From Hydrurus foetidus (taxonomy: Eukaryota), in contig UYFQ01000256.1 in NCBI GenBank assembly GCA_900617105.1, forward strand, positions 1-48,911: 48,911 nt of DNA, written 5' to 3'. Position numbers and translations under genes: made by a program. Of the stretch, positions 1,071 to 22,669 are shown piece after piece. The notes beneath the pieces are model-generated. The model did no database searches. It was not told the DNA's origin and was given only the letters and a program-made list of their open reading frames with translations. The first letter of the stretch is position 1, and the number at the start of each line of letters is the position of its first letter.

Positions 1071-1709
1071 GTGTCAGACCCTAGCGCGTGCTCAACCCTA
1101 CTCAAGAGGACGAGCGGAAAGTGGACAGAATCTTATCCTACTTGCTCTATACAAGGCACCAAGCTATGGTTCTCTGTATCGGCGACAAGCTATGGTTCTC
1201 TTGAAGTCCGCGCCTATGTCGATGCCTCCTTCGGAATGTATGAAGATGGCAAATCAATCACAGGAGTTGCGATTATGTTGGGCAGTGCTACCATTCATGT
1301 CAAGTCAGGCAAGCGAAAGATTGTTACCCGGTCGTCGACGGAATCGGAGCTTGTCGGAATCTCAAACGCCTTGTCGCAGATTTTATGGACAAGGTAATTC
1401 CTCCTAGCCGCTGGGTTGAAATTGGGACCAGCAATCGACTTCCAGGACAACCAGTCCACAATATTCCTGGGAAATAAAGGAAGATCTGCAAGTGAGAGGA
1501 GCCGCCACATTAAAATCAGATACTTCTTCGTCCATCATTACATCACGTCAAAGGAAGTGGAATTAAAATACTTGCCTACCTCTGAAATGGTCGCCGATAT
1601 ACTTACGAAACCGTTGCATGAGGCGCTCTTCCAGAAATTCCGCGGGCAGCTGACAGGGTCACCAATAACTCCCCACACCGATAACTCGTGTTGCAGTTAC
1701 CTCTTTTAA
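1071..1709 (+). pseudogene. Copia RNase H domain, disrupted
   Basis: YVDASFG..DGKSITG, VTRSSTESELV, FQDNQSTI, RSRHIKIRYFF, MVADILTKPL; in-frame TAA at 1395-1397 between two same-frame ORFs. Confidence 0.9.
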
Positions 1710-3898: not shown

Positions 3899-3981
3899 GC
3901 TGTGAAGATCTCAGATTAAAGTGGCCGTAGTGGCCGTGTGGTAGCCGGCTAGTCCCACAGACGGCTAGTCCCACACGCCGA

Positions 3982-4254
3982 TGTTGTATATTGCATACGT
4001 AGCACTGGTGTTAGTACGAGGTGTACGTACGCACGCTACACTTCATGTGTGAGTTGATGCGTGCGCGACACTTTGGATGCATGACCGAATATATATATAT
4101 TAGGTTGAGTTGCTAACTGTAAACTTGATGAACATGATCGTGTGTCATGCTTCACAAGTTCTAATAACAAGTGATTGAGCGAAACCAGCATTTCACGAGC
4201 CTTGAGAAGATATCCGTGTAAGCGAACCTCACCAGATATCCAGATTTCTCAACA
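3982..4254 (+). repeat. 5' LTR of Copia-A
   Basis: Direct repeat of 7645-7917; TA-repeat TATA-like run near 4090-4101. Confidence 0.97.
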
Positions 4255-4281
4255 TATTAAAACTTACCAGGAGCCATTGTG

Positions 4282-7200
4282 ATGCCTCCAAAACGTGCTG
4301 GTGAACCCAAGGAAGTCCCGGAATGCATTCTCAAGATTGGAAAGTACAACAACGTTGTAGCTTGGAACCTAGAAATGCGCTCCGTAGTAGGAACCATAAA
4401 TGGGGCCACAGCCAACTTCCTCACGGGTAATATGAGATACGTTCCACACTATCCGACAGAAGAAGACTATATACCTGTAAACCCGGCACTTGCGGAAGGG
4501 GTGGCGCAGCCAGTCATCCCCGCGGCGTTGATAACAAAGCTAAGGGAGGACTGTTTCACTGGCAGACGCAAAGAGATGGCCCAACAACGCAAGGATGAAC
4601 AGAAAATCTGGTCCATTATGTGGACTAGAATGTCGCCCGCATCGCAAAGTAAAGTCCAGGAGGAGCCCGAATATGAGGCGGCGCTGCTGGCACGGGACTG
4701 CGTACTACTGTGGGAGTTCATTCGGCGCACCCACCTTACGCACATCTATGGGGACGGAGACCCTATGCTCGCCCTGAACATTCAGGAGCAGGAACAAAGA
4801 TACAATGCTCTTAAACAAGGGGACAGAGAGTACGTGTCCAATTTCAAGATCCGTTTCGACGCACAGGTGCACGCGTGTAGGGGTGCAGGAGTGGCAGAAA
4901 TCACGGAACCAAAACGCGCATTGGATTTCATCTACAAATTGGACCCTAAGAGATTCACTAAGATGATCGCGTTCATGAGGAACAATGCTCTGCTCATGGA
5001 GGGAGATGCATTCCCACAGACCCTTGCAGCCGCTTGCCGTATAGCATCCGGTTGGGTTAATGAAGATACCGGTGGACCCCAAGTCCCAGGAATCGAAACC
5101 CACTCTGCCTTTGCAACCGAAGAAAGCAACCTAGTAGCGAAGTCTAAGGATACGGAGAAAGGAAAACGGAGTACGACGAAGGGCGAATCCGCTACGAAAA
5201 AGAAACCATCTACCGAAGTTGAATGCTTCGTGTGCGGTCTCACCGGCCACTATGCTCGGGACTGTCCGACTAAGAAAGGAGCAGCACGTGCCCTCATCGC
5301 TGCTACAAATGCGGCCAACAATAACGATTCATTTGACGATGATGACGGTGAGGAGACCGCCTACATCACTACTGGGGAGACTCTTTTGTTCTCAAGAGAC
5401 GATGTACTGTTGGACAGTCAGGCGTCAGTTAATATGGCATACGGTACACAAAGCGGGTTACGGAAAGCGGATGATCCAACGTACATGCGATCAAGCGGAG
5501 TTACGGTAGACCCGGCGATTACTGCTAACGAAGACATCGTACAGGAAATTCCCACGATTCCCCAGTACTCACCACCACACCAACAAACTCTAGCGGATGA
5601 TATTGGAGTAGAACCGAATGCACAAGCGGAAGTGCAGAACGAAACATATTTTGACATGCCAGATCTGGATGTCGGACCGTTGATAGAGTTCGAACAATAC
5701 GAAGAACCGGAAGTCAATCGTGGCGCATCGATTCCAGCATCACCTCCACGATCAGTCAGAACCACACCAGTGTACGCGAGGTATAACACTGTTGCACAAC
5801 CGAGTACACCTCTGAGACGAGATCTGATGAACTATTATAACGCCAATGATGTCGCACTCACCACCGTGTTAGCGGCATGTATACCAACTGTAGACAGCGG
5901 AGGAAATAACGAGCACGTTATGAACATCTCGGTGAAAGAAGCGCTGCGAACTAGGGGTGCAGATGCAGAACGAGTCATACTAAAGGAACTGTCACAAATG
6001 ATCGACAAAAAAGTATGGACTCCGATACAAATAAGAGCGCTCACAGGTACGGAAAAAAGGGGAATTATTCGCTCTCAGATGTTCCTGAAGGAGAAATACT
6101 TGCCGACGGGTGCGTTTGAGAAGTTGAAGGCACGCCTAGTTGCTGGTGGAAATCAGCAGAACAAAGATCTGTACGACGATCTCTCTTCTCCAACAGTGTC
6201 TACAAGTGCTGTAATGACAGTATTTGCTATCGCAGCATATGAGAAGAGAAATGTTGCTGTAGTTGATATTGGGGGTGCGTATCTAAACGCCGACATGGAC
6301 ACAGGAATTACGGTGCATATGCGTTTGGACAAAATGATGTCGTCAATGGTGCGTAAAATCGACGAGACATATGGAGATTATATGGACGACAAGGGATGTG
6401 TCGTAGTCCGTCTCGATAAGGCGTTGTACGGATGTGTGGAATCCGCAGCATTGTGGTACGAGAACCTGTCAGGGGTACTAAAAGATTTCGGTTATAAGAA
6501 GAACAGATATGAAATATGCGTATACAACAAGACGAATAACAAAGGGGTACAGTGCACTGTTGCAGTGCATGTAGACGATCTCATTATATCGAGCACCGAC
6601 AAAGAAATGATCAGAACACTGTGCGATAACTTGAGAGAAAAGTATGGAGTGATCACACGTGCGGACGGTCCTGTTGTTAATTACCTTGGTATGGTTTTCG
6701 ATCTTACTATACCAGGTGAGGTCAGGATGACTATGAGAGGATATATTGAGGATACGATAGCGTATGGTGGTGTAACGGGTACTGCCAAGAGTCCGGCCAC
6801 CGAAGGCCTATTCGAAACGCGCGAAGGTGCGACTGGGGCTAGTGAGAGCGACAGGGTCTGGTTTCACAGTGTGGTTGCTAAACTCAGCTACCTAGCGAAA
6901 AGTGCCAAACCGGAGTGTCTTACTGCCGTAGCTTTCTTGGCGACAAGAGTAACCAGATGCACGGAAGGTGACATAGAGAAACTGAAGCGAGTATTGAGAT
7001 ACATCGCTGGTACCCGAGAGAATGGGGTAGTGTTCAGACCAGGGGTGCTTGGAATATGTGTGAGAGTGTTTGTGGATGCTGCATACGGAGTGCACGCGGA
7101 TGGCAAGTCGCACACAGGAAGCTGCATCGTGATAGGAGATGTCGGAGCGGTACACTGTAAGTCGAGTAAGCAGAGTATTGTTACAAAGTCTAGTACAGAG

Positions 7201-7485
7201 GCTGAACTGGTCGCGTTGTCGGATTCAGCGAACCAAGGACTGTATCTATGCAATTTCTTGAAGGATCAAGGACACTCGATTGGTCCGGTGACCGTATACC
7301 AAGACAACACGTCTTGTATGTCTCTTGTGGGTAAGGGACGATCTGGAGCAGAACGTACTCGACACATTAACATCAGATATTTTTGGTTGAAAGAGAGGAT
7401 GGACACTGGAGAGGCCACCGTGGTACACAAAAGGACTAAAGACATGTATGCCAATGTACTCACTAAGCCACTACAAGGTGGATAA
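4282..7485 (+). CDS. Copia Gag-Pol with an in-frame deletion of most of the protease and the integrase; RT and RNase H retained
   Basis: Zn knuckle CFVCGLTGHYARDC; protease start LLDSQAS; no HHCC/DDE integrase; RT motifs KARLVAGG, VDIGGAYLNA, KALYG, VHVDD; RNase H FVDAA, STEAE, YQDN; TAA at 7483-7485 is followed by 12 more homologous codons (FRFERECLTGWV). Confidence 0.93.
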   Translation: MPPKRAGEPKEVPECILKIGKYNNVVAWNLEMRSVVGTINGATANFLTGNMRYVPHYPTEEDYIPVNPALAEGVAQPVIPAALITKLREDCFTGRRKEMAQQRKDEQKIWSIMWTRMSPASQSKVQEEPEYEAALLARDCVLLWEFIRRTHLTHIYGDGDPMLALNIQEQEQRYNALKQGDREYVSNFKIRFDAQVHACRGAGVAEITEPKRALDFIYKLDPKRFTKMIAFMRNNALLMEGDAFPQTLAAACRIASGWVNEDTGGPQVPGIETHSAFATEESNLVAKSKDTEKGKRSTTKGESATKKKPSTEVECFVCGLTGHYARDCPTKKGAARALIAATNAANNNDSFDDDDGEETAYITTGETLLFSRDDVLLDSQASVNMAYGTQSGLRKADDPTYMRSSGVTVDPAITANEDIVQEIPTIPQYSPPHQQTLADDIGVEPNAQAEVQNETYFDMPDLDVGPLIEFEQYEEPEVNRGASIPASPPRSVRTTPVYARYNTVAQPSTPLRRDLMNYYNANDVALTTVLAACIPTVDSGGNNEHVMNISVKEALRTRGADAERVILKELSQMIDKKVWTPIQIRALTGTEKRGIIRSQMFLKEKYLPTGAFEKLKARLVAGGNQQNKDLYDDLSSPTVSTSAVMTVFAIAAYEKRNVAVVDIGGAYLNADMDTGITVHMRLDKMMSSMVRKIDETYGDYMDDKGCVVVRLDKALYGCVESAALWYENLSGVLKDFGYKKNRYEICVYNKTNNKGVQCTVAVHVDDLIISSTDKEMIRTLCDNLREKYGVITRADGPVVNYLGMVFDLTIPGEVRMTMRGYIEDTIAYGGVTGTAKSPATEGLFETREGATGASESDRVWFHSVVAKLSYLAKSAKPECLTAVAFLATRVTRCTEGDIEKLKRVLRYIAGTRENGVVFRPGVLGICVRVFVDAAYGVHADGKSHTGSCIVIGDVGAVHCKSSKQSIVTKSSTEAELVALSDSANQGLYLCNFLKDQGHSIGPVTVYQDNTSCMSLVGKGRSGAERTRHINIRYFWLKERMDTGEATVVHKRTKDMYANVLTKPLQGG

Positions 7486-7644: not shown

Positions 7645-7917
7645 TGTTATATATTGCATACGTAGCACTGGTGTTAGTACGAGGTGTACGTACGCACGCT
7701 ACACTTCATGTGTGAGTTGATGCGTGCGCGACACTTTGGATGCATGACCGAATATATATATATTAGGTTGAGTTGCTAACTGTAAACTTGATGAACATGA
7801 TCGTGTGTCATGCTTCACAAGTTCTAATAACAAGTGATTGAGCGAAACCAGCATTTCACGAGCCTTGAGAAGATATCCGTGTAAGCGAACCTCACCAGAT
7901 ATCCAGATTTCTCAACA
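7645..7917 (+). repeat. 3' LTR of Copia-A
   Basis: Direct repeat of 3982-4254. Confidence 0.97.
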
Positions 7918-8173
7918 GCCGATGGTGGGTGCTTTCGGTAAACCGAAAAAATGACGGAAAGCTTCATTTTGGACAAAAAACTTTTTTTTATCGAGGCTTC
8001 AGTTTTTTTACTGAAAAAGCTGTTCGGTAAAATTGTTGAAGCTTCGTAACTCAAAGAAAGTAGTGGTTGGTGACGATTCATGTTTTTGATGAACTTCAGA
8101 AAATGAAGGTTTCAACGCTGCAACTTTTTACCGTTACAGCGCTCCATCACTTTCATCTGAACATATTGCTGAG

Positions 8174-9204
8174 ATGACTACGCCCGTTGCAGGCAAAACT
8201 GAAGTTTCTGTCAAATGGTTGGACGTGAACCGCAAAGTTCTCATCGACTGCATCGCCGAGCACTCAGACGGCAGATATTCCAATATGAAAAATAGTAAGA
8301 CTGCGTGGAAATCAGTCGTCGTAGATTTTAAGACAAAAACAGGTCTACCATACGATAAGAAAATTCTTACGACTCAAGTTCAAACGTTGAAAAGGAACTG
8401 GTCAACCTACGACCAGTTTGCAAATAACAGCGGGTTCGGGGTGGATGCGAAAGGTCTTGTAACAGCGGCGCCGGAGGCTTTGAATACCTACTTCGCCACG
8501 CACCCAAAGGCCGCTCATTTCGCCAACACACCACTGCCATTTTATTCAGAGCTGACCAAGCTCTTCTCGCGTAAGTAAAATAAGATGATTGAGTTTATGC
8601 TGAAGAATTATTCTTAATTTATGAAACTCATGTTACGATAAAATTTCATACAGTGGATACTGCTACAGGGATGTATGCTAAGGCTCCTAATGCTCTCAAG
8701 GCCGCCGCAATTCCCGCCGTAGTCGCCGCTTCAGGCTTGTCGCAGCCGCTGGATCTCTTCTCCTCCTCTGATGATGTGGAGGTCCTTGACGGCGCGGCCG
8801 CTGCCACGCCAGTTCGAAACTCGTCCAGCGAGCAACTATTGCCTGGCTCCAGTAGGTCCGAAGACTCGAGGACACCTGCGTCGAAAAATGTTAGCAACGG
8901 TAGAGTGGTTAGACCTTTTGTGAGGACACCTAAAGCACCGAGGGAGAAACCAGCAGATGCGTTTGCTTCCCTGCTCCAAGAGGTCATCAGTCACCAAAAG
9001 ATTGCTTCCTCCCGAGTTTCTCCGTTCGAGTCCGCGGTTGCGGCTTTCAAAGCAGGACATGCCGAAGGGCTGACATCAGCTGAAGTCAGGGGGATCATTT
9101 GCCTCTTCTCAGAGAATGCCCCCTTTGTCAATCAGTTCTTATCATTTGACGAGGAGTCGAGAGACTTCATCATAACCGAGAAGCTAACCCAGTTGGATAA
9201 TTGA
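8174..9204 (+). CDS. Harbinger Myb/SANT-like DNA-binding accessory protein; exons 8174-8570 and 8654-9204, 315 aa
   Basis: Trp-spaced N-terminus (KW...AWK...LKRNW..Y...NNSGFG.D); an 83-nt intron GTAAGT...CATACAG joins the two ORFs in frame to give ...ELTKLFSLDTATGMYA. Confidence 0.88.
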
Positions 9205-9425
9205 TGCTTACCTATATGAATCTCTTGTACCGTACCCCCCTCATTTTTTTCAAATTAATAAACGAATCTTCTATTTTTTAATTTATGAGAATTTTCTTGG
9301 GGGGACCGTAGTATACGGAAACGTATCCATCATTTTAAGGGAATTAGCAGCTAATTCTCTACAGTACAACAGTAAAACTCACTTCGTTAATACAATAAGT
9401 GATCTAATTAATATTACAAAAGAAA

Positions 9426-10583
9426 TCATGCAGCATTATGCTGAGCCATTACAACTAGATAATTTGCCCACATAGCGTCAGCTATACCATTTCGCCATGC
9501 TTTTAAAGCATTGTAGTTCGCTAATTGGTGATCCTCATCTTCATTATCAGCATGATTACCGTTTACAGCCTCTTCTTCTTGATAGAACTCATCCTCATAC
9601 AGCTGATTCATACGAATAAAATTGTGTACTAGAAAACAACAGTGAACAATATCACACTGAAACTCAAATTCATAAGGGCTCATTTCAATCAACACAGGGA
9701 ACCTACGTTTCAGAACACCATACATTCTTTCAATAACATTTCTTAATGATGAATGCCTAAGATTGAATAGTTCTTTTGCATTTTGAGGCCCATTTACATC
9801 ATACTCTCGTAGGTGATATCTAACACCACGATATGGAGTTAAAACATTTTCACTGAGGCCATATCCAGCATCACCTAAATAATACTTACCAGGAATAATA
9901 GGGAAACCTTTGTCTTTTGAGTCATCAAAAACACGACTATCGTGAGCCGATCCTTCCCAACCGCACAAAGCATATGCGAAAGTTAAGTCAAAGTTAGCCA
10001 CACCGAGTACATTTTGAGATATAAACTTTTTCCGATTTCGGAAAGCCTCTTGGTCTGCAATAGGAACGCGGGCATGTATATGAGTCCCATCCAAAGCTCC
10101 AACGCAGTTGTCAAAAAAAGGAGAGAATTTTGCAACATTGCTTATTTCTGGTGGTGTTGGGCCACCAACCATTGCGGGCTGAAATATGATAGCACTACAC
10201 CGTTTTAAGGCGTCACTAGTTTCGTGAACAACTTTGGAAATAGTTGCTGAACTGTGCTGCCATCTTTCTCTAATTTGACGGACGGTGTAACCCCGAAAAA
10301 CTTGGAATAAAATCATGAGTTTCTGGCCATTACAAATATACAACGAATTCAAAAGTCCCCCAGTCTCAGATAGAAATAATTGAAACTTCAAGAAAGTCGC
10401 ACGGTCCATTCTTGCAACCTCATGGAATCGATGGACATTGTACGTCTGCATGATCTCGTCGAAATACATCTGTCCAGTCAATGCAGAAGTATGCTGTAGC
10501 ACAGGAATGGGAACTGCATTGTGCAAAACTCCAAGCACAGCTGCAACAACAAGAACGACATCAATGCTACCAGCGTTTTCCAT
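9426..10583 (-). CDS. PIF/Harbinger DDE transposase (HARBI1/DDE_Tnp_4 type), 385 aa, uninterrupted
   Basis: CVGALDGTHI, GWEGSAHDSRV, YYLGDAGY, FNLRHSSLRNVIERMYGVLKRRF, LVHNFIR. Confidence 0.96.
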   Translation of the reverse strand: MENAGSIDVVLVVAAVLGVLHNAVPIPVLQHTSALTGQMYFDEIMQTYNVHRFHEVARMDRATFLKFQLFLSETGGLLNSLYICNGQKLMILFQVFRGYTVRQIRERWQHSSATISKVVHETSDALKRCSAIIFQPAMVGGPTPPEISNVAKFSPFFDNCVGALDGTHIHARVPIADQEAFRNRKKFISQNVLGVANFDLTFAYALCGWEGSAHDSRVFDDSKDKGFPIIPGKYYLGDAGYGLSENVLTPYRGVRYHLREYDVNGPQNAKELFNLRHSSLRNVIERMYGVLKRRFPVLIEMSPYEFEFQCDIVHCCFLVHNFIRMNQLYEDEFYQEEEAVNGNHADNEDEDHQLANYNALKAWRNGIADAMWANYLVVMAQHNAA

Positions 10584-10851
10584 GATGTTGGGATATAGTG
10601 ATAGTTGTGCAATACAGAGATGTCTATGATAAATTGGAAATTGGTCGTTTCGTGTTATGTACGTCGTCCGACATCAAGATCCATCCCCCCAAATTTTGGA
10701 CCCCCCAAAAAAAGAAAACCGTTCGGTAAAAAGATTTTGGGGAAAAAACACGATTTTTGAAAGTTGAATCTGGGGTCCGATTCAACTTTCAAAAAAGTGT
10801 AACTTTTTGACGGAAATTTACCGAACGCACCCGGTATCATCACATCATCAC

Positions 10852-11296
10852 TGTTGAGTTTTCACGTAGAACCGGGTACGCACAACCACAGGAGAAAGGT
10901 CTCTGGCAGTTGACTGATTCCTCTCAAGACTCGTGAAATACTGTCTGTTGCAATAATCACTTGTTAATTAGATTTGTGCGCTAACATCAATCTTGCAGCG
11001 CTACAAATCATCATGAACAGTTCACAAACTGAAAGCATCTCAAAAGGAATCAACCGCCAGGAGACCCTGACGGTTGGACAGAGGCAAAACTCCGCACGAA
11101 TCAGGTCTGGTTCCCTGACTGGAACCTAGACCGGATCTTGGACCGGGCTTCGGACCGGACCTTGGACTGGACCCCTGTCCGGACCTCGGACCGGACCCTG
11201 AGTCGGACTCTAGACTGAGTCCTGACTCAGACCATGGACCGTACATACTAAGCTACGCAAGTGCGGCATAACATGGGAATACCAGATATTCCAACA
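10852..11296 (-). repeat. 3' LTR of Copia-B
   Basis: Near-identical to 13452-13851 + 19399-19428 + 19884-19898; contains GGACC-rich short repeats. Confidence 0.92.
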
Positions 11297-11482
11297 ATCA
11301 CGTCCATAGTCCATGATCCATGATCACAATCAACAATCACAGTCTTCGAGTTATCACATCATATTTCCAGCAATCAACAACTTCCCATGACAACTGGGTA
11401 CTCTTCTCTGTGGCTCATTCAAGTGGAAATTACGGAGAGCGAAATGACTCGCATTTTCGGTGCTTTTTAGCTGTCGTCAAAA
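11297..11482 (+). repeat. 186-bp copy of the host flank (19899-20084) inside Copia-B, between the 3' LTR and the PPT
   Basis: Near-identical to 19899-20084 (one difference seen); starts with the TSD ATCAC; followed by CA and CACCCCTT (PPT on the minus strand). Confidence 0.9.
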
Positions 11483-11772
11483 CACACCCCTTATTTCGCA
11501 CGCAATACAGTTCAATCATCACACATGCAGTATATCTTCGCCCGGTTCCTTGACTGGACCCTGGACCAGATCTTGGCCTCGACCTTGGACCGGATGACTG
11601 TCCGGACCTCTCACTCGACCGTGGGCCAGACCCTTGACTGAGTCTTGACCCACTCCCCGCATGGCACATATAGTATACGCTACTCCTACTGTTGTTCTCT
11701 GTCTCTGTCTTGGGTCTTGTGCTGATGTGCTGTAAATCGGATGACATTGCCCACCCCTAATCTCACTCGGAC

Positions 11773-12546
11773 TCACTCCGTGTCTGCTCTCCACCCCGTT
11801 AGCGCCAGTCTCTCTGCCAGGAACTGCGCTCCTTGCAGTGGCTTCGTGAGCAGGTTCGCGAACATCGCTGCTGTCCCCATGTGCACGATGGCCGCCTCTC
11901 CCTTATCCACCCGCTCCTTCACCCAGAAATATCGTATGTTAATGTGCCTGGTCCTCTCCGCTGCTGACCTCCCACGCTGAACCAGTGCCATGCATGAAAG
12001 GTTGTCTTGGTATAGTATGAGAGAGTCCATCTTGTACCCCTGCGCTATGAGGATGTTCCTCACATGGATCCCCTGATGTGTTGAGTCGGACAGTGCCACC
12101 AGCTCCGCTTCCGTACTTGACTTTGTCACGATCTGCTGCTTGCACGATTTGCAGTGCACCGCGCCCATTTCCCCGATCACAATGCAGCTCCCGGTGTGGG
12201 ACTTCCCGTCGGCGTGCACCCCGTATGCCGCATCCACTAGCACCTTCACTACGATTCCTCCTTCTCCGATTCTCAATCTTATCCCATGTCCTCGTGTCGC
12301 TCTGATGTACTTGATCAGGCGCGCCAGCTTGTCCAAGTCATCCCTATCGCACCGTGATACCCTAGTCGCGAGGAATGCGACTGCAGTGAGGCAGTCTGGT
12401 CTTGCGCGCTTCGCAAGGTACAGTAGCTTGGCTACCATCGTGTGGAAGTGTCCCTGCCCTGCATCGGTCGCCTTCACTGTCTCGGGTCGCACCGAGAATA
12501 GGTTCTCGGTCCCTGGTGTCCTCGCACCCCCTGGAGACTCACTACC
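11773..12546 (-). pseudogene. Copia-B RT C-terminus and RNase H
   Basis: VAKLLYLAKRARPD, LVDAAYGVHADGKSHTG, SSTEAELVALSD, YQDN, FANLLTKPLQG. Confidence 0.93.
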
Positions 12547-13418: not shown

Positions 13419-14082
13419 CACGATGCGCAGAGCTGTTGCTTAATCTAATTATGTTGAGTTTTCACGTAGAACCGGGTACGCACAACCACAGGAGAAAGGT
13501 CTCTGGCAGTTGACTGATTCCTCTCAAGACTCGTGAAATACTGTCTGTTGCAATAATCACTTGTTAATTAGATTTGTGCGCTAACATCAATCTTGCAGCG
13601 CTACAAATCATCATGAACAGTTCACAAACTGAAAGCATCTCAAAAGGAATCAACCGCCAGGAGACCCTGACGGTTGGACAGAGGCAAAACTCCGCACGAA
13701 TCAGGTCTGGTTCCCTGACTGGAACCTAGACCGGATCTTGGACCGGGCTTCGGACCGGACCTTGGACTGGACCCCTGTCCGGACCTCGGACCGGACCCTG
13801 AGTCGGACTCTAGACTGAGTCCTGACTCAGACCATGGACCGTACATACTAAGGCCACAATTCACCGTCACGTGATAACGCGATACGTGATAGTATCACGT
13901 GCAGATTATCACGTAAAACTTTGATTCGCCGGACACGCGATGACATTTCCAACGTGATAGTATCGCGGATCCTCCAATATTCAACGCGAAAAACAGATTT
14001 ATCGCGTCCTCGATTTTATCAAAACGCGATACATTATAGGACTACGTTGCCACCTTGGAAACCATACAATTTATTCAGACAG

Positions 14083-15308
14083 ATGGCAGACGAGGCATCA
14101 ATTCGAATGAATAGGGCAACTCGAGGACTGGGTGAAGCCTACATACTACTACTGTTGCTGGCATGGAACGATGTAGTTACGAACGGTTCGAAGCAGAGCA
14201 CCGCCCAGATTGAGCAATCTATTAAAGTGAGAGCAGCAGATTGGGTCAAGGAGCTGTTTGATAGTTACAAATACATTCCAATCAAAGATGCCACGGCTGA
14301 GTCTATCATGGCCCAAGTTGAGAAGGATTCTGGCGTCCAAATGTTGAGAAAGCCAAGGACGCTGTGGCTTTCATCATAAACGTCCTAAATCCTGCATGGA
14401 AAGATCCTGTCGCGTATGCTTCGGGAACTCAACTTGGTGACGCACTATCCGTATGTAAGGAGGCAGCTTGGCAGCGAAATGAGGAAGAGAAAAAGAAACA
14501 AGCAGCAAAGAGGAAAGTAGACTATCAACCGCGTCCATTTGATCCTAGCTGGCAAATCAAAGAGTGGCTATCCTTTCGCTACGTAGGCGTCCCATCCGGA
14601 AGGTCATGCGTTGATATTTGTGAGAAACGCACGTATCTATATATGCGAGAAACTAACTCCTTTGCCAATGTTCATTTAAACAGGACGAAATGCCTTCAAG
14701 TGCTGAAAACTCCACCCCCTGGTAGTGGCCCATCAAAAACAAAAGAGGTTCTGCCAACGGTATCATCTGAATCCTTGAGATCAGCTATGGCTGCGACAGG
14801 CGGCCGCAACCAGCGTCGTCTTGCGAATCTCAAAACTGAGACTACGAATACTCCAGAGACCGATCTGGAGCTGCAGATGATATCGAGCAGCATACTTGAG
14901 CAGCGGAAGATAGCATCGAACGTCAAATGGACGACTGAGAGAGAGAGATTGACGGCCATAGTTGACCTATCGAAGCAAATGCCAGATGTTACGGAATCTG
15001 AAAGATCCGCAAATATGCGTGAGTTGTATAATTTTTTGAAGCGCCCGGTAGAAGAGGTCGAACAGGTTTCGTTAGGAACCGCCAGCAAATCTTTGAAAAC
15101 TTCAAGAAACACTAATGTTGACTCTTTCTCAACTCCTGCTTCAGCTTTAGCTGCATCTTCTTCCTCTTCATCTAAACAGGTTGAGCAGGATGCGCGGGAT
15201 GATGACTACACAATTGTGCCTCCACTAAGATACCACCCTGATCAAACCGAGAGTGATGACAATTTTGAATACGAAGAAGACTACGGGATGCCATATGAAG
15301 CCATCTAA
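14083..15308 (+). pseudogene. Accessory (ORF1) gene of the Harbinger-like element; frameshift near 14355; possible 81-nt intron 14603-14683
   Basis: Homologous to 18789-19150(-) across the frameshift (..GVQMLRK/AK.AV..IINVLNPAWKDPVA.ASGTQLG); convergent with the transposase. Confidence 0.8.
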
Positions 15309-15311
15309 ACT

Positions 15312-15797
15312 CGTATACCACCTTCCCCAGTCCAGCCCAGTTCAGTCGTATACCACCTTCCCCAGTCCAGCCCAGTTCAGTCGTATACCACCTTCCCCAG
15401 TCCAGTCCAGTCCAGTTCAGTCGTATACCACCTTCCCCAGTCCAGTCCAGTTCAGCCGTACACCGCCTTCCCCAGTTCAGTCCAGTTCAGCCGTATACCG
15501 CCTTCCCCAGTCCAGTCCAGTTCAGTCGTATACCACCTTCCCCAGTCCAGCCCAGTTCAGTCGTATACCACCTTCCCCAGTCCAGTCCAGTTCAGTCGTA
15601 TACCACCTTCCCCAGTCCAGTCCAGTTCAGCCGTACACCGCCTTCCCCAGTTCAGTCCAGTTCAGTCGTATACCACCTTCCCCAGTTCAGTCCAGTTCAG
15701 CCGTACACCACCTTCCCCAGTTCAGTCCAGTTCAGTCGCACACCGCCTTCCCCAGTTCAGTCCAGTTCAGCCGTACACCGCCTTTCCAAGTCCAGTC
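15312..15797. repeat. Minisatellite, 35-40 bp unit CGTATACCACCTTCCCCAGT(CCAGY)nTCAGT, about 13 copies
   Basis: Directly visible tandem units whose length varies by CCAGT/TCAGT pentamers. Confidence 0.92.
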
Positions 15798-16049
15798 CCT
15801 AGCGGGTTTTTTTTGTGAACACAACTCACTTTTTTTTTAAATCTTTTTTTTATAACCTCTTTAAATCAATTGTATTCTCACACAATATCCTATACCTTAA
15901 TTCCTACTGCCTTTATTAAATCTGACTTTATTCTCAAAACTCCTCTCATCTTTCTTGTTATAAATTAAAAAAACATTATCCAACAAATTTTTTTTTTGAA
16001 AACGAGAAAATGAAATTTAAAATGAAAATAAAATGAAACTATTTAAAAC

Positions 16050-17513
16050 TGGTAAGTTTTAATTTCCTTTATTGTACACTAGTTTTTTTTCTTCAGTAAA
16101 CTTAGTGGGCCACTTTACAATCCCGAATTATATGCATGTACAAAATGATCAACAAGTATGCGACGTTTCATATTAAAGTCAGTATCCCATTCTTCTATGA
16201 ATTCATTCCCTATCATCCTTTCCTCCTCTTCTGTATTATCGATTGATGAAATCCACTCAGATACACGTCTATTAATTAATATTTGCTGACTTCCCATCAC
16301 ACCCTCTTCTACCTCATCAAACCCTTCATCTGAATTAGTCGGTTGCGGGTGGATAGCTTCCCAATCCACATCCTTTTCCCATCTACAATCCAAGCCATCA
16401 TCCTCTAAAATCATATTGTGTAAAATGCAGCACGTAAAGAATACATTATCTATTGAATTTTGATCTTGCAATACAATACCGTTTCTGAGAAATCTCCATC
16501 TACCTTTTAAACTACCAAACGTGCATTCAACATCTTTTCTAGTAGATTCAATCCACTCAGACCATATTCGATCACTTCTAACAGATGTTTGTTTCATAGG
16601 ATTTATCATGCATGTCCACTTATGATTACCACCATCACAAATATAATAAACACCTTTCATTGGTTTTAAAACTCCATCAATAAAAACATTGAACTCAATA
16701 TTTTCATTTACTTTTTTTCTCTGACATCAGTAATATAAGTATCACCACGGACAATGGTTTTATCATTTTTGCCCCCCAATAACTGCTTGTAGATGCAAGT
16801 ATTCTGTGATGATGATCTACAGTACATGAGTAAGCAAGAGTTGGATATCCTTCCTTCCCACTACACTGTTGCGCCAAGCCTACGGGGCATCGATCCCATT
16901 TGAGGTGAACGCAGTCGGTTGATCCAATACAACCGGGGAGACCCATTTGTTCAAAAACTTTCATAACTTTGAAAAGCTTTTCACCCACTGGACGATAAAC
17001 ATATATTGAATAATATTCTCTGACAAAATTTTCACAAAAAGTGTGAAAAGCCCTTCTCGCTGTGGATTCACCCATGAAAGTTGCCTCCGCAATGTCGTCG
17101 AAGTTCCAATTTCTTCCCAAAATTCGAAGCACGGACAAAAGCTTGATTTCCACTGGGCATAAAGTTCGACCAGTGATATCCCTATCCCTACTTGCATTTT
17201 CTCCGAAAAGATTTTTGTCCAAGCACTTTTGTACCAGATTGCAAAAAACACCGTAAGGAACTCGAAATCGACGTCGGAATAGTTTTCCGTCTCTTGAGTC
17301 AATCGATGGTCCACCATCAATTTGTGCCAGGCGCACTAATAGCTGACCCCACGGAGAGCATTGGTAGTTGATGTCGTTCAAACGTTGAACGTTTGGTGGA
17401 GTACGCTGAGGTCTGCGATTTAGCTTGGCGATAGAACGCCTCTTCGCCATCCTTTTCATGATCGCCATCATCACCGAAAACTGACCGAGAATGAACTTGG
17501 TTGAGTAGATCAT
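16050..17513 (-). pseudogene. Harbinger-like DDE transposase, frameshifted
   Basis: FRRRFRVP, GLPGCIGSTDCVHLKWDRCP, YYICDGG, ESTRKDVECTFGSLKGRWRFL, CCILHNMILEDD; frameshift at the C-run near 16770 and probably another near 16117. Confidence 0.92.
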
Positions 17514-17951
17514 CTTTCAAAGATTCTTGGTTCAAAAAGCTATGTGCTATCATCTGGTAGATAGCTTGAAACGGTCATCTTGGGTAAAAAATTCTTAAAA
17601 ATTTGAATTTTTGAATTATCACGTGCAGATTATCACGAAAAACGGTGAAACGTGGAAAAGTTCGTATACGTGATAATCTGCACGTGATACTAACGCGTAT
17701 CGCGTTATCAGGCTACAATTCACCGCAACGTCTAAACGGAGTCGGTGTAGTATAACGTAGATTCTGACCGTGTGCTACAATTTGACTTAATTCACCGTTC
17801 TCCGGAATACATCTTACGTTATAATTCAAAATTCGAAAATTTGAATAATTTCTCGACTTTTACCGACCGTTACATCATTTCTAAGCAACATATGCTATAG
17901 CTTCTAGTGACTTCTGATGCACAAATTTTTGAAGTCGGTTCGCTCCTCAGG

Positions 17952-18788
17952 ATGATTTATTCTCTTAGTCAGTTTTCTGCCATGATGATGATCATGCTAA
18001 GGGTCATCAAGAGGCGCAAAGTTGCAAAGTCAAGTGCAAAGCCACGGCGTAGTCCTACGTCTGTTCCCCGATTGAAGGCAATCGATTATTGGTACTCTCC
18101 ATGGGGTCAGCTTCTGAGGCGTTTTGCTGCAATTGATGGTGGACCATCAATTGCATCAAGAGACGGCAAATTGTTCAGGCGCCGATTTCGAGTCCCATAC
18201 AGCGTATATCGCAATTTGGTGCAGAAATGCCACGAGAAGAACCTCTTCGGTGAGAATTCTTCTAAGGAAAAGGATATTACTGGGAGAAGTATTTGTCCTG
18301 TTGAAATCAAATTATTGTCGGTACTTCGAGTACTGGGCCGGAATTGGAATTTTGATGACATCGCTGAGGCAACATTCATGGGGGAGTCGACTGCAAGGAG
18401 AATGTTCCACACATTTTGTTCTAATTTTGTGGAACACTTTTATTCGGTGTTTGTTTACAGACCAACTGGTGACAAACTATCAAGAGTCATGAAAGTTTTT
18501 GAGCCAATGGGATTACCGGGCTGTATTGGCTCCACAGACTGTGTTCATTTAAAATGGGATCGGTGTCCTGTTGGACTTGCTCAACTATGCTCTGGTAAGG
18601 AGGGATTTCCTACTCTTGCATATTCTTGCACAGTAGATCATCACCATAGGATTTTAGCATCTACTACTAGTTATTGGGGTGCAAAAAATGATAAAACGAT
18701 AGTGCGTGGAGATACTTATATTACAGATGTGAGAGAAAAAAAAGTACACGATGATGTAGAGTTTAATGTTTATGTAAATGGTGTATTG
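17952..18788 (+). pseudogene. N-terminal ~280 aa of the Harbinger-like transposase, truncated by deletion
   Basis: Highly similar to 16704-17513(-); ends before the second catalytic Asp motif (YYICDGG). Confidence 0.92.
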
Positions 18789-19150
18789 TACTCACCTAGT
18801 TGAGTTCCTGAGGCAAACGCAACTGGATCCTTCCAAGCAGGATTCAGGACGTTAATGATGAGAGTCACCGCCTCCTTGGCCTTTCGCAACATTTGCACGC
18901 CAGTATCCTTGTCAACCAATGTTGAAAGGACTTCGGGCGTCGCGTCCTTTATTGGTATGTATCTATAATTGTCGTAGATCTCCTTTACCCAGTCCGCGGC
19001 TCTCACTTTCAGAGACTGTTCAATTTGAGGAACACTCTGCTTCCCTCCGTTGGTGACAACGCCATTCCATGCGAGGAGGAGAAGAAGTGTGTATGCTTCA
19101 ACCAATCCTCTTGTCGATCTAACCATACGAGCAGTAACTTCCTCCGACAT
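18789..19150 (-). pseudogene. N-terminal fragment of the accessory ORF1 gene
   Basis: MSEEVTARMVRSTRGLVEAYTLLLLLAWNGVVTNGGKQS... aligns with 14083 onward; fused tail-to-tail to the transposase fragment. Confidence 0.85.
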
Positions 19151-19428
19151 TCTGTGGCTTTGCAATGTGGCTACGTCGCCCCATTTGATGATAGCGTTTT
19201 ATAAAAATAGAGAACGCTATATATCTATTTTTGACGTTGAAGATTTGAAAATCCGATCCAAGATAACGTCGAAAAAAATGCCGGGAGTCCGGCGAACCAG
19301 CTATTTCCGTTAAAAAACAACACGTTATACTACACCGACTCCGTTTAGACGTTGCGGTGAATTGTAGCCTCACGTGACGGTGAATTATTGTGGCCTAAGG
19401 TACGCAAGTGCGGCATAACATGGGAATA

Positions 19429-19881
19429 CCGTCGAGTGCCTATTCTTTTGCCATTTTCGATTTCCGGTTTTCAGAATTTCGGGGATTTTCGGCTGTTTTC
19501 CAACAATTTCGCGACAACTAGAGAAGTGGGGACCCCGATGAGATGTGTCAGGTGTTGCCTGAAGTTGTCCGCATCTTTTGATATATGACGGTCATGCACC
19601 TACGATGAGCAGATCGGCTGCAAATCGCGATCCAAAATGAACTTTTGGTCCCTTGCAATCGAAATTTCTCGATTTTGGGGAGCGCAGATTGAAAACTGAA
19701 TAGACAGTATACCCAAAATAACTATGCTCTTTCCGAATCCACTATCACATTTGCGTGAAATTCTATGTCCAAGGAGTTAGCAGTTCCCGTTGGCAATTAC
19801 CGTGTCAAAATTTCCGTGATTCTGACCGTTGTCAAAATCCTATTCTCACTTCAAAATGGCAAAAGAATAGGCACTCGACGG
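19429..19881. mobile_element. Tc1/mariner-type MITE, 453 bp
   Basis: Perfect 29-bp TIR CCGTCGAGTGCCTATTCTTTTGCCATTTT; TA duplicated at 19427-19428 and 19882-19883; the empty site GGGAATACCAG is present in the other LTR (11275-11285). Confidence 0.93.
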
Positions 19882-20089
19882 TACCAGATATTCCAACAAT
19901 CACGTCCATGGTCCATGATCCATGATCACAATCAACAATCACAGTCTTCGAGTTATCACATCATATTTCCAGCAATCAACAACTTCCCATGACAACTGGG
20001 TACTCTTCTCTGTGGCTCATTCAAGTGGAAATTACGGAGAGCGAAATGACTCGCATTTTCGGTGCTTTTTAGCTGTCGTCAAAATTATC

Positions 20090-22109: not shown

Positions 22110-22592
22110 TTATAGGAATTCAGAGGGAGATAGAGTTTTAGTGAGCCCATCCGCTATCATATCGTGTGTGCTTATGTGGCGGGGCGCAATTTGGTTAGTC
22201 TTGGACAGCCAGCGGACGTAATGCGATTTGAGGGCTATGTGGCGCGATTTGCGTGTAATTTGGTTGGCTGTGGTCAGGTTAATGGCGGGTTGATTGTCTT
22301 CAAGTATGGTAGTGGGTTGTTGTTGTAGGAATCCTATGTCAGCAGCGAATTGTCTGAAGAACATGACGTCTTTGGCGCAGCGACCAAGAGCAAGGTATTC
22401 TGCTTCGCAGGGGCTGAGGGCGATACCTGACGTCTCCGCGGAGGAGTGGACAACAAAGGGTGCATTAACTGTGCCTATTTGGATAGTATACGCAGAGTGT
22501 GAGTGGCCATCTGGATGGCATGCGTGTGAGGAGTCTGCAGCCGCGAAGATGGTGACGCCGGATGTGAAGGCAAGTGGATCAGTGGAGTAGGC
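22110..22592 (-). pseudogene. Divergent Copia RNase H remnant abutting the satellite
   Basis: AADSSHA, ALSPCEAEYLAL, ILEDNQPAI, RKSRHIALKSHYVR, MIADGLTKTL, then a stop. Confidence 0.88.
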
Positions 22593-22669
22593 AACCTTTT
22601 AGGTAGCGAAGGAGATGAATTTGTTTTGAGAGGTATGATTGAGTTGGTGCAGAGTTATGAGTGCAGAGA

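Follow-up and report, generated by a model that had tools for sequence, protein, structure and literature searches.

The window examined here, a stretch of 48,911 nucleotides from Hydrurus foetidus, carries two internally deleted copia retrotransposons, Copia-A and Copia-B, of a large lineage in which the primer site abuts the end of the long terminal repeat (LTR), lacks TGG and complements a segment of the element's own LTR, while the letters of both partners change from element to element. The best explanation, to which a probability of roughly 85% can be given on the basis of sequence comparison, is that this large lineage of protist copias uses a Tf1-like self-primed reverse transcription, in which the front end of the element's own RNA would replace the tRNA.

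In Copia-B, the ten nucleotides directly 3′ of the 5′ LTR end (...CTCAACA) read TAATTAGATT (13451–13442, minus strand). Their exact 10/10 reverse complement is the segment AATCTAATTA within the LTR (13574–13565), so that a perfect own-LTR complement, as described in a first-pass annotation of this DNA, was recovered upon re-reading both stretches. Since it lacks TGG, the site is not of the tRNA 3′-end type. The primer segment is repeated in the 3′ LTR at 10974–10965, and among 40 of 70 variant rows from contigs of the sequencing runs no variant falls within 13442–13451 or 13565–13574. The same annotation had placed the segment of both elements in a shared context, that is, CACA, ten nucleotides, ACAAGTGATT and, further downstream, ATTTCACGAG(C/T)CTTGAGA, which is indeed present in both LTRs of both Copia-A and Copia-B. 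The full ATTTCACGAG-CTTGAGA motif has no further occurrence in 1–22900 outside the LTRs of the two elements, and the ACAAGTGATT part alone gives two chance 9/10 matches in this range.

The primer sites of Copia-A and Copia-B differ at positions 3, 5, 7 and 9 of 10, with a corresponding change in the LTR slot in every case; cross pairing between the two elements reaches 4–6 nt at most. The earlier statement that the two pairs differ and nevertheless stay complementary thus holds for the four co-changing positions, yet not fully for the Copia-A copy in the window, which pairs at 10/11 with a C·A mismatch at 4161. Contigs of the A family from runs X1 and X3 carry T instead of C at 4161 (depth 859.3 of 859.3 and 10.5 of 10.5, respectively), which makes the pairing 11/11 in these other copies. 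In further families seen in the contigs, the primer slot reads differently; since their primer sites are not linked to these slots, they stayed out of the counts.

When the 633-bp Copia-B LTR was shuffled 20,000 times with dinucleotides preserved, a 10-nt match arose with a frequency of 0.00025 at offset 0 and of 0.00095 at offsets 0–5, while the 11-nt match of Copia-A with at most one mismatch had a shuffle frequency of 0.003. For Copia-B, the P value of such a chance match is about 0.001. The duplexes have calculated energies of −6.9 kcal/mol in Copia-B and −3.7 kcal/mol in the window copy of Copia-A; in Copia-B every pair except one is A-U, which is weak by itself.

Both elements are copias. 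A copia-type reverse transcriptase (RT, PF07727) was found in Copia-A (E 2e-26) and in 15 out of 15 relatives scanned, and the RNase H region of Copia-B, the sole part of pol left in this element, is 64% identical to Copia-A on the amino acid level, compared to 45% for gag. A quick tree of 55 rows with unnamed relatives groups the two as sisters (support 94). The first-pass annotation had regarded their LTRs as otherwise dissimilar; this could not be upheld, as their R-U5 parts share homology and the two elements represent sister families. By itself, the comparison of Copia-A with Copia-B hence amounts to one pair of sister families with four changes and not to independent elements.

An integrase is absent from the copies in the window. 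In full-length relatives it precedes the RT: relative P0003 shows conserved D, D and E motifs near residues 612, 676 and 708, N-terminal to the RT, and an rve match that falls short of the curated cut-off was obtained in one of 12 relatives scanned (P0340, residues 610–703, E 3e-4). No HHCC zinc-binding motif was seen by eye at residues ∼540–585 of P0003, i. e. in the N-terminal region of the integrase. RNase H is directly followed by the polypurine tract and the LTR, and no chromodomain match was obtained. The frame of Copia-A lacks residues 401–858 of P0003. Without integrase, and in the case of Copia-B also without RT, the window copies would depend on intact family members.

As to the LTR lengths, the 273 bp noted previously for Copia-A are correct, while the 445 bp given for Copia-B have to be replaced by 633 bp (10852–11484, with AAATAAGGGGTG before TG). 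The 5′ LTR of Copia-B is interrupted by two insertions and lacks its first two nucleotides; overall, it differs from the 3′ LTR by two mismatches. The hallmarks of LTR retrotransposons, including LTR ends of the TG...CA type, are present as two LTRs with a target duplication in Copia-A and as LTR and polypurine tract in Copia-B, whose 5′ tip and duplication are lost (Table 1). In relatives, the usual junction of tract and LTR is GGGGTG followed by TGTT.

Table 1. Positions of the features of Copia-A and Copia-B in the window.
Feature	Position	Strand	Remarks
Copia-A target duplication GCCGA	3977–3981 and 7918–7922		
Copia-A 5′ LTR, 273 bp	3982..4254	+	
Copia-A primer slot AAGTTCTAATA	4156–4166	+	within 5′ LTR
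Copia-A primer-binding site TATTAAAACTT	4255..4265	+	10/11 with slot in window copy, 11/11 in other copies
Copia-A gag-RT-RNase H frame	4282..7485	+	protease and integrase region deleted
Copia-A 3′ LTR	7645..7917	+	one mismatch to 5′ LTR
Copia-B 3′ LTR, 633 bp	10852..11484	−	
Copia-B polypurine tract AAATAAGGGGTG	11485..11496	−	
Copia-B C-terminal pol remnant (RNase H region)	11794..12534	−	protease, integrase and most of RT deleted
Copia-B gag, truncated after ∼292 aa	12543..13418	−	
Copia-B primer-binding site TAATTAGATT	13442..13451	−	directly 3′ of 5′ LTR
Copia-B 5′ LTR, proximal 400 bp (R-U5 and part of U3)	13452..13851	−	identical to 3′ LTR
Predicted U5 stem, TTGAG (13527–13523):CTCAA (13458–13454)	13454..13527	−	ends just before terminal CA
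Predicted hairpin 3′ of primer, GTGA (13560–13557):TCAC (13536–13533)	13533..13560	−	RNAalifold, unguided
Copia-B candidate self-primer	13565..13575	−	10 paired nt (13574–13565) and A at 13575
Nested PIF/Harbinger-type DNA transposons in U3 of Copia-B 5′ LTR	13852..19395	.	TAA duplication, GGCCACAAT ends
Copia-B 5′ LTR remainder	19396..20084 (19396–19428 and 19882–20084)	−	first 2 nt lost
Small inverted-repeat element in U3 of Copia-B 5′ LTR	19429..19881	.	TA duplication

Several further repeats share the window with the two elements. The nested block at 13852–19395 harbors related transposase frames on opposite strands (16115–17516, minus; 17901–18803, plus; ∼75% alike) as well as a 35-bp tandem array at ∼15311–15798. 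Another Harbinger-type element, which carries a DDE transposase frame as well as one of the Myb/SANT type, lies between Copia-A and Copia-B (8093–10673). Additional copia RNase H remnants were found at 1206–1658 (plus) and 22113–22625 (minus), which are 47% and 28% identical to P0003, respectively; downstream of the former lie a purine tract and, near 2048, what is probably an LTR. Half of the window (22891–48911) is made up of ∼72 near-identical copies of a 361-bp tandem unit, each with an open frame of 85 codons in which E, K and A abound and which is perhaps an amplified gene end. No tRNA gene was found in the window, an Rfam search of 1–24000 gave no hits, and a PDB search returned 11 weak zinc-knuckle hits and nothing else.

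Relatives of the two elements form 2133 protein clusters at E≤1e-20. The runs that contain Copia-A comprise freshwater, biofilm and sediment metagenomes as well as one coded organism. In the ∼6% covered of each of two RNA runs under the same species label, no matching reads were obtained. Scans of metagenome, viral and prokaryote collections based on gag yielded no loci, and scans of viral contigs with the LTR motif and with the RT gave no matches.

The complementarity was then assessed throughout the lineage. An RT-RNase H scan of metagenome contigs confirmed at least 420 of the 598 pattern matches listed, and 78 loci were kept, 53 of which were testable; the other 25 were left out because they have no gag start with upstream DNA. 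The LTR end was set by a rule blind to pairing, i. e. CAACA with at most one mismatch, 8–230 nt upstream of the gag ATG. As the statistic served the longest exact complement that starts from the first base after the LTR end and lies within the element's own LTR region, and the controls take the same maximum. A complement of at least 10 nt was found in 34 of the 53 loci and one of at least 9 nt in 38, compared to 0.9% and 2.5% with the LTRs of other elements and 0.5% and 2.5% with shuffles. When loci are grouped into families at 80% amino acid identity, the 10-nt length is attained in 28 and the 9-nt length in 32 of 40. Paired stretches measure 9–33 nt and begin, on the LTR side, 59–223 nt upstream of the LTR end. 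The longest perfect complements between LTR and primer site, at L013:288–530 (33 nt) and L024:132–343 (27 nt), compare with 11 nt in Tf1.

Seventeen loci were re-read by hand. Six that the rule had missed, as their gag start had been set wrongly or their LTR end deviates, could be rescued, with complements of 10 (L003), 15 (L016), 16 (L027), 11 (L035), 10 (L046) and 9 nt (L056); these rescues are post hoc and stand outside the above counts. Of the others, L055 pairs over 10 nt with one G-U, L036 still reaches 9 nt, and L044 is without the needed part of the LTR. After inspection by hand, eight of the 53 loci remained at 7–8 Watson-Crick pairs (L030, L031, L033, L034, L037, L038, L032 and L045). 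The first six of these belong to one well-supported clade and have just seven Watson-Crick pairs; four of them have long leaders (∼90–113 nt), and a compensatory change is still visible in L030 and L031. At L003:2791–3590, gag is broken after ∼70 codons by a non-coding stretch of ∼700 nt, either an insertion or an intron.

These numbers leave next to no room for chance complementarity, which is refuted by the lineage test (34 of 53 loci as opposed to less than 1% expected) after having reached a P of only ∼0.001 in Copia-B alone. The sequences are AT-rich and short, and matches of at least 9 nt occur in 2.5% of comparisons across elements, which lends such an origin, or an assembly artefact, some initial appeal; however, the two LTR copies both show the pairing, as do contigs from independent runs, and we consider this explanation negligible.

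After L055 had been dropped by hand as not significant, 31 family representatives remained, all of whose primer sites differ within the first 9 nt, and TGG was found within the first six nucleotides of the primer site in none of the 31. One host RNA cannot match 31 different sites. Moreover, each of these matches its own LTR and rarely that of another element, and close pairs change in register, such as TAATTAGATT in Copia-B and TAATTAGACT in L003, each matched in its own LTR. It is hence very improbable that priming is done by a half-tRNA or another small RNA of the host, comparable to the situation in the Osser, Bryco and Bianca copias, whose primer sites are complementary to an internal part of tRNA-Met or tRNA-Ile, with the LTR match being secondary, even though half-tRNA primer sites likewise lack TGG according to the account in PMC6317226 and TAAT or CAAT opens many of the primer sites seen here.

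The covariation for which the first-pass annotation had proposed to look in a larger alignment is found in the lineage test as well as in two alignments of 7 and 11 rows, A4 and A5. These MAFFT alignments, which were not fitted to structure, put slot and primer site in register, except that L004 is misaligned at the slot in A5. In A4, 98.2% of cells are paired and both partners change in 5 of 9 pairs; in A5, 93.3% are paired and both partners change in 7 of 11 pairs (21 cells), percentages that are inflated for the primer helix because near-relative rows were picked after the pairing was known. The A5 score was reached in none of 500 shuffles, a test inflated by the relatedness of the rows, and controls with a slid partner pair at 20–39%. 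Unguided RNAalifold recovered the primer helix from both alignments and, from the 11 rows, predicted two more helices, i. e. a GTGA:TCAC hairpin and a TTGAG:CTCAA stem in U5, which account for the motifs shared by Copia-A and Copia-B in the first-pass annotation. In the 11 near relatives, which were not selected on this feature, 94.5% of cells of the U5 stem are paired and 4 of 5 pairs are doubly changed, with none of 500 shuffles of these related rows scoring as high. The stem ends two bases before the primer site, and a variant at 13459 that accounts for most contig depth in three of four runs would give it a sixth pair.

Examined element by element, the U5 stem was significant in one of 28 cases, and a Tf1-like leader duplex beat shuffles at P≤0.05 in none of the 28, so that the full Tf1 structure is not shown. 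The candidate leader duplex over the gag AUG was thus rejected.

A pyrimidine-A step is the usual initiator of RNA polymerase II. In 15 of the 31 family representatives, the 5′ edge of the pairing falls exactly between C and A (background 5.1%), and in 24 a CA lies within one nucleotide of this edge (background 14.8%), a test that is likewise inflated by related rows. The step is located exactly at the edge in Copia-A and within one base in Copia-B; no TATA box at a fixed distance was evident by eye. The CA at the edge suggests that transcription would start at the paired segment, namely at 4156 in Copia-A and at 13575 in Copia-B, where the A preceded by C is likely +1 of the RNA.

This arrangement also bears on the possibility that the pairing reflects a real, conserved RNA structure for packaging, dimer formation or translation control, while priming proceeds otherwise. 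What is shown here is structure alone, the paired lengths of 9–33 nt are more variable than the 11 nt of Tf1, and fungal GalEa copias carry a conserved non-tRNA hairpin at this place for which the portions of PMC5445492 at hand give no known mechanism. Yet the 3′ arm opens with the very base that follows the LTR end, the point from which minus-strand synthesis has to proceed, and the 5′ arm opens at the initiator-like CA. No alternative primer site was seen, and such a role without priming is unlikely.

The conserved self-priming RNA structure postulated in the first-pass annotation is therefore supported, as far as structure is concerned, by the covariation, the CA at the edge and the covarying U5 stem. 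In the proposed self-priming mechanism, the RNA 5′ end would fold onto the primer site, with the GTGA:TCAC hairpin and the TTGAG:CTCAA stem closing the junction. In analogy to Tf1, the element's RNase H may then cut in front of ACAAG, immediately 3′ of the paired segment, and the RT could extend the freed 3′ end into U5.

During plus-strand synthesis, LTR elements copy their primer. A self-primer could thus template its own site, and paired changes could spread and be fixed quickly without two mutations. Hence, part of the covariation may have arisen when the primer was copied into its site, and not by selection acting on two separate mutations; as this copying still requires self-priming, the covariation points to self-priming either way.

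The closest functional parallel is Tf1 of Schizosaccharomyces pombe, in which, as described in PMC7175516, the RNA's initial 11 bases anneal to the primer site and RNase H cleaves between bases 11 and 12; priming is set in a three-duplex "pretzel" structure (PMC10085805). With Tf1/Tf2 and the Tf1/sushi group, as portrayed in these two sources, the present elements share a primer site that immediately follows the 5′ LTR and an own-LTR complement of ∼11 nt at the RNA 5′ end, the position of which is deduced here. Also in common with Tf1 as depicted there is a duplex in which the sequence just 5′ of the primer site pairs with a part of the LTR that lies downstream of the primer (PMC7175516, PMC10085805). 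Differences concern the leader duplex, which is unsupported here, with a local hairpin following the primer instead, and the paired lengths of up to 33 nt; moreover, the mechanism is shown for Tf1 and inferred for the present elements. The Tf1/sushi group consists of Ty3/gypsy chromoviruses, including plant Tcn1, whereas here a copia RT is preceded by the integrase and no chromodomain is detected. Owing to this RT and the copia domain order, the lineage falls outside the Tf1/sushi group, although it likely works like Tf1.

Among plant elements, self-priming has been predicted for the gypsy element Tcn1 and the copia lineage TAR (Houba, Osr-1) by a 10-bp rule (PMC6317226). The TAR criterion given there, an own-LTR complement of at least 10 nt that lies 0–5 nt after the 5′ LTR, also describes Copia-B. 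In the available text of this source, complementarity is reported for TAR, not covariation. Fungal GalEa copias resemble the present elements in having no tRNA primer site, yet theirs is described as a palindromic hairpin downstream of the LTR without an LTR complement (PMC5445492), while the partner lies inside the LTR here. TAR is a plant lineage, and the present elements stem from freshwater, biofilm and sediment samples. Diatom CoDi elements are likewise copias of aquatic protists. The RT, RNase H and integrase motifs of the present elements presumably resemble those of CoDi-I. In the main text of the CoDi paper, neither tRNA nor priming nor primer binding came up in a term search (PMC2806351). 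More generally, no self-priming protist copia was found in the consulted text of PMC2806351, PMC6875170 and PMC3601003 or by literature searches, with subscription journals, Repbase and GyDB outside their scope.

A more far-reaching reading has, in our view, about an even chance of being correct. It holds that the lineage is an undescribed one of aquatic protists, in which tRNA-free priming arose independently of Tf1 and plant TAR, with a fold of its own (primer helix, hairpin and U5 stem, but no leader duplex), with primers of 9 to more than 30 nt, and with a site that is rewritten from the RNA 5′ end in each cycle. If true, the copia RNase H must find the position of its cut by structure and not by length.

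Self-primed reverse transcription has been demonstrated experimentally for the gypsy element Tf1, while for copias it has just been proposed, for plant TAR, according to PMC6317226 as far as consulted. With thousands of relatives, covariation at the level of single bases, a putative start site marked by CA and another conserved stem, the lineage constitutes a direct test bed for self-priming by copia RT and RNase H. An annotation that expects a tRNA primer site will miss or misjudge such elements. The lineage could also inform on how often tRNA priming was abandoned, and such elements would escape control by tRNA fragments.
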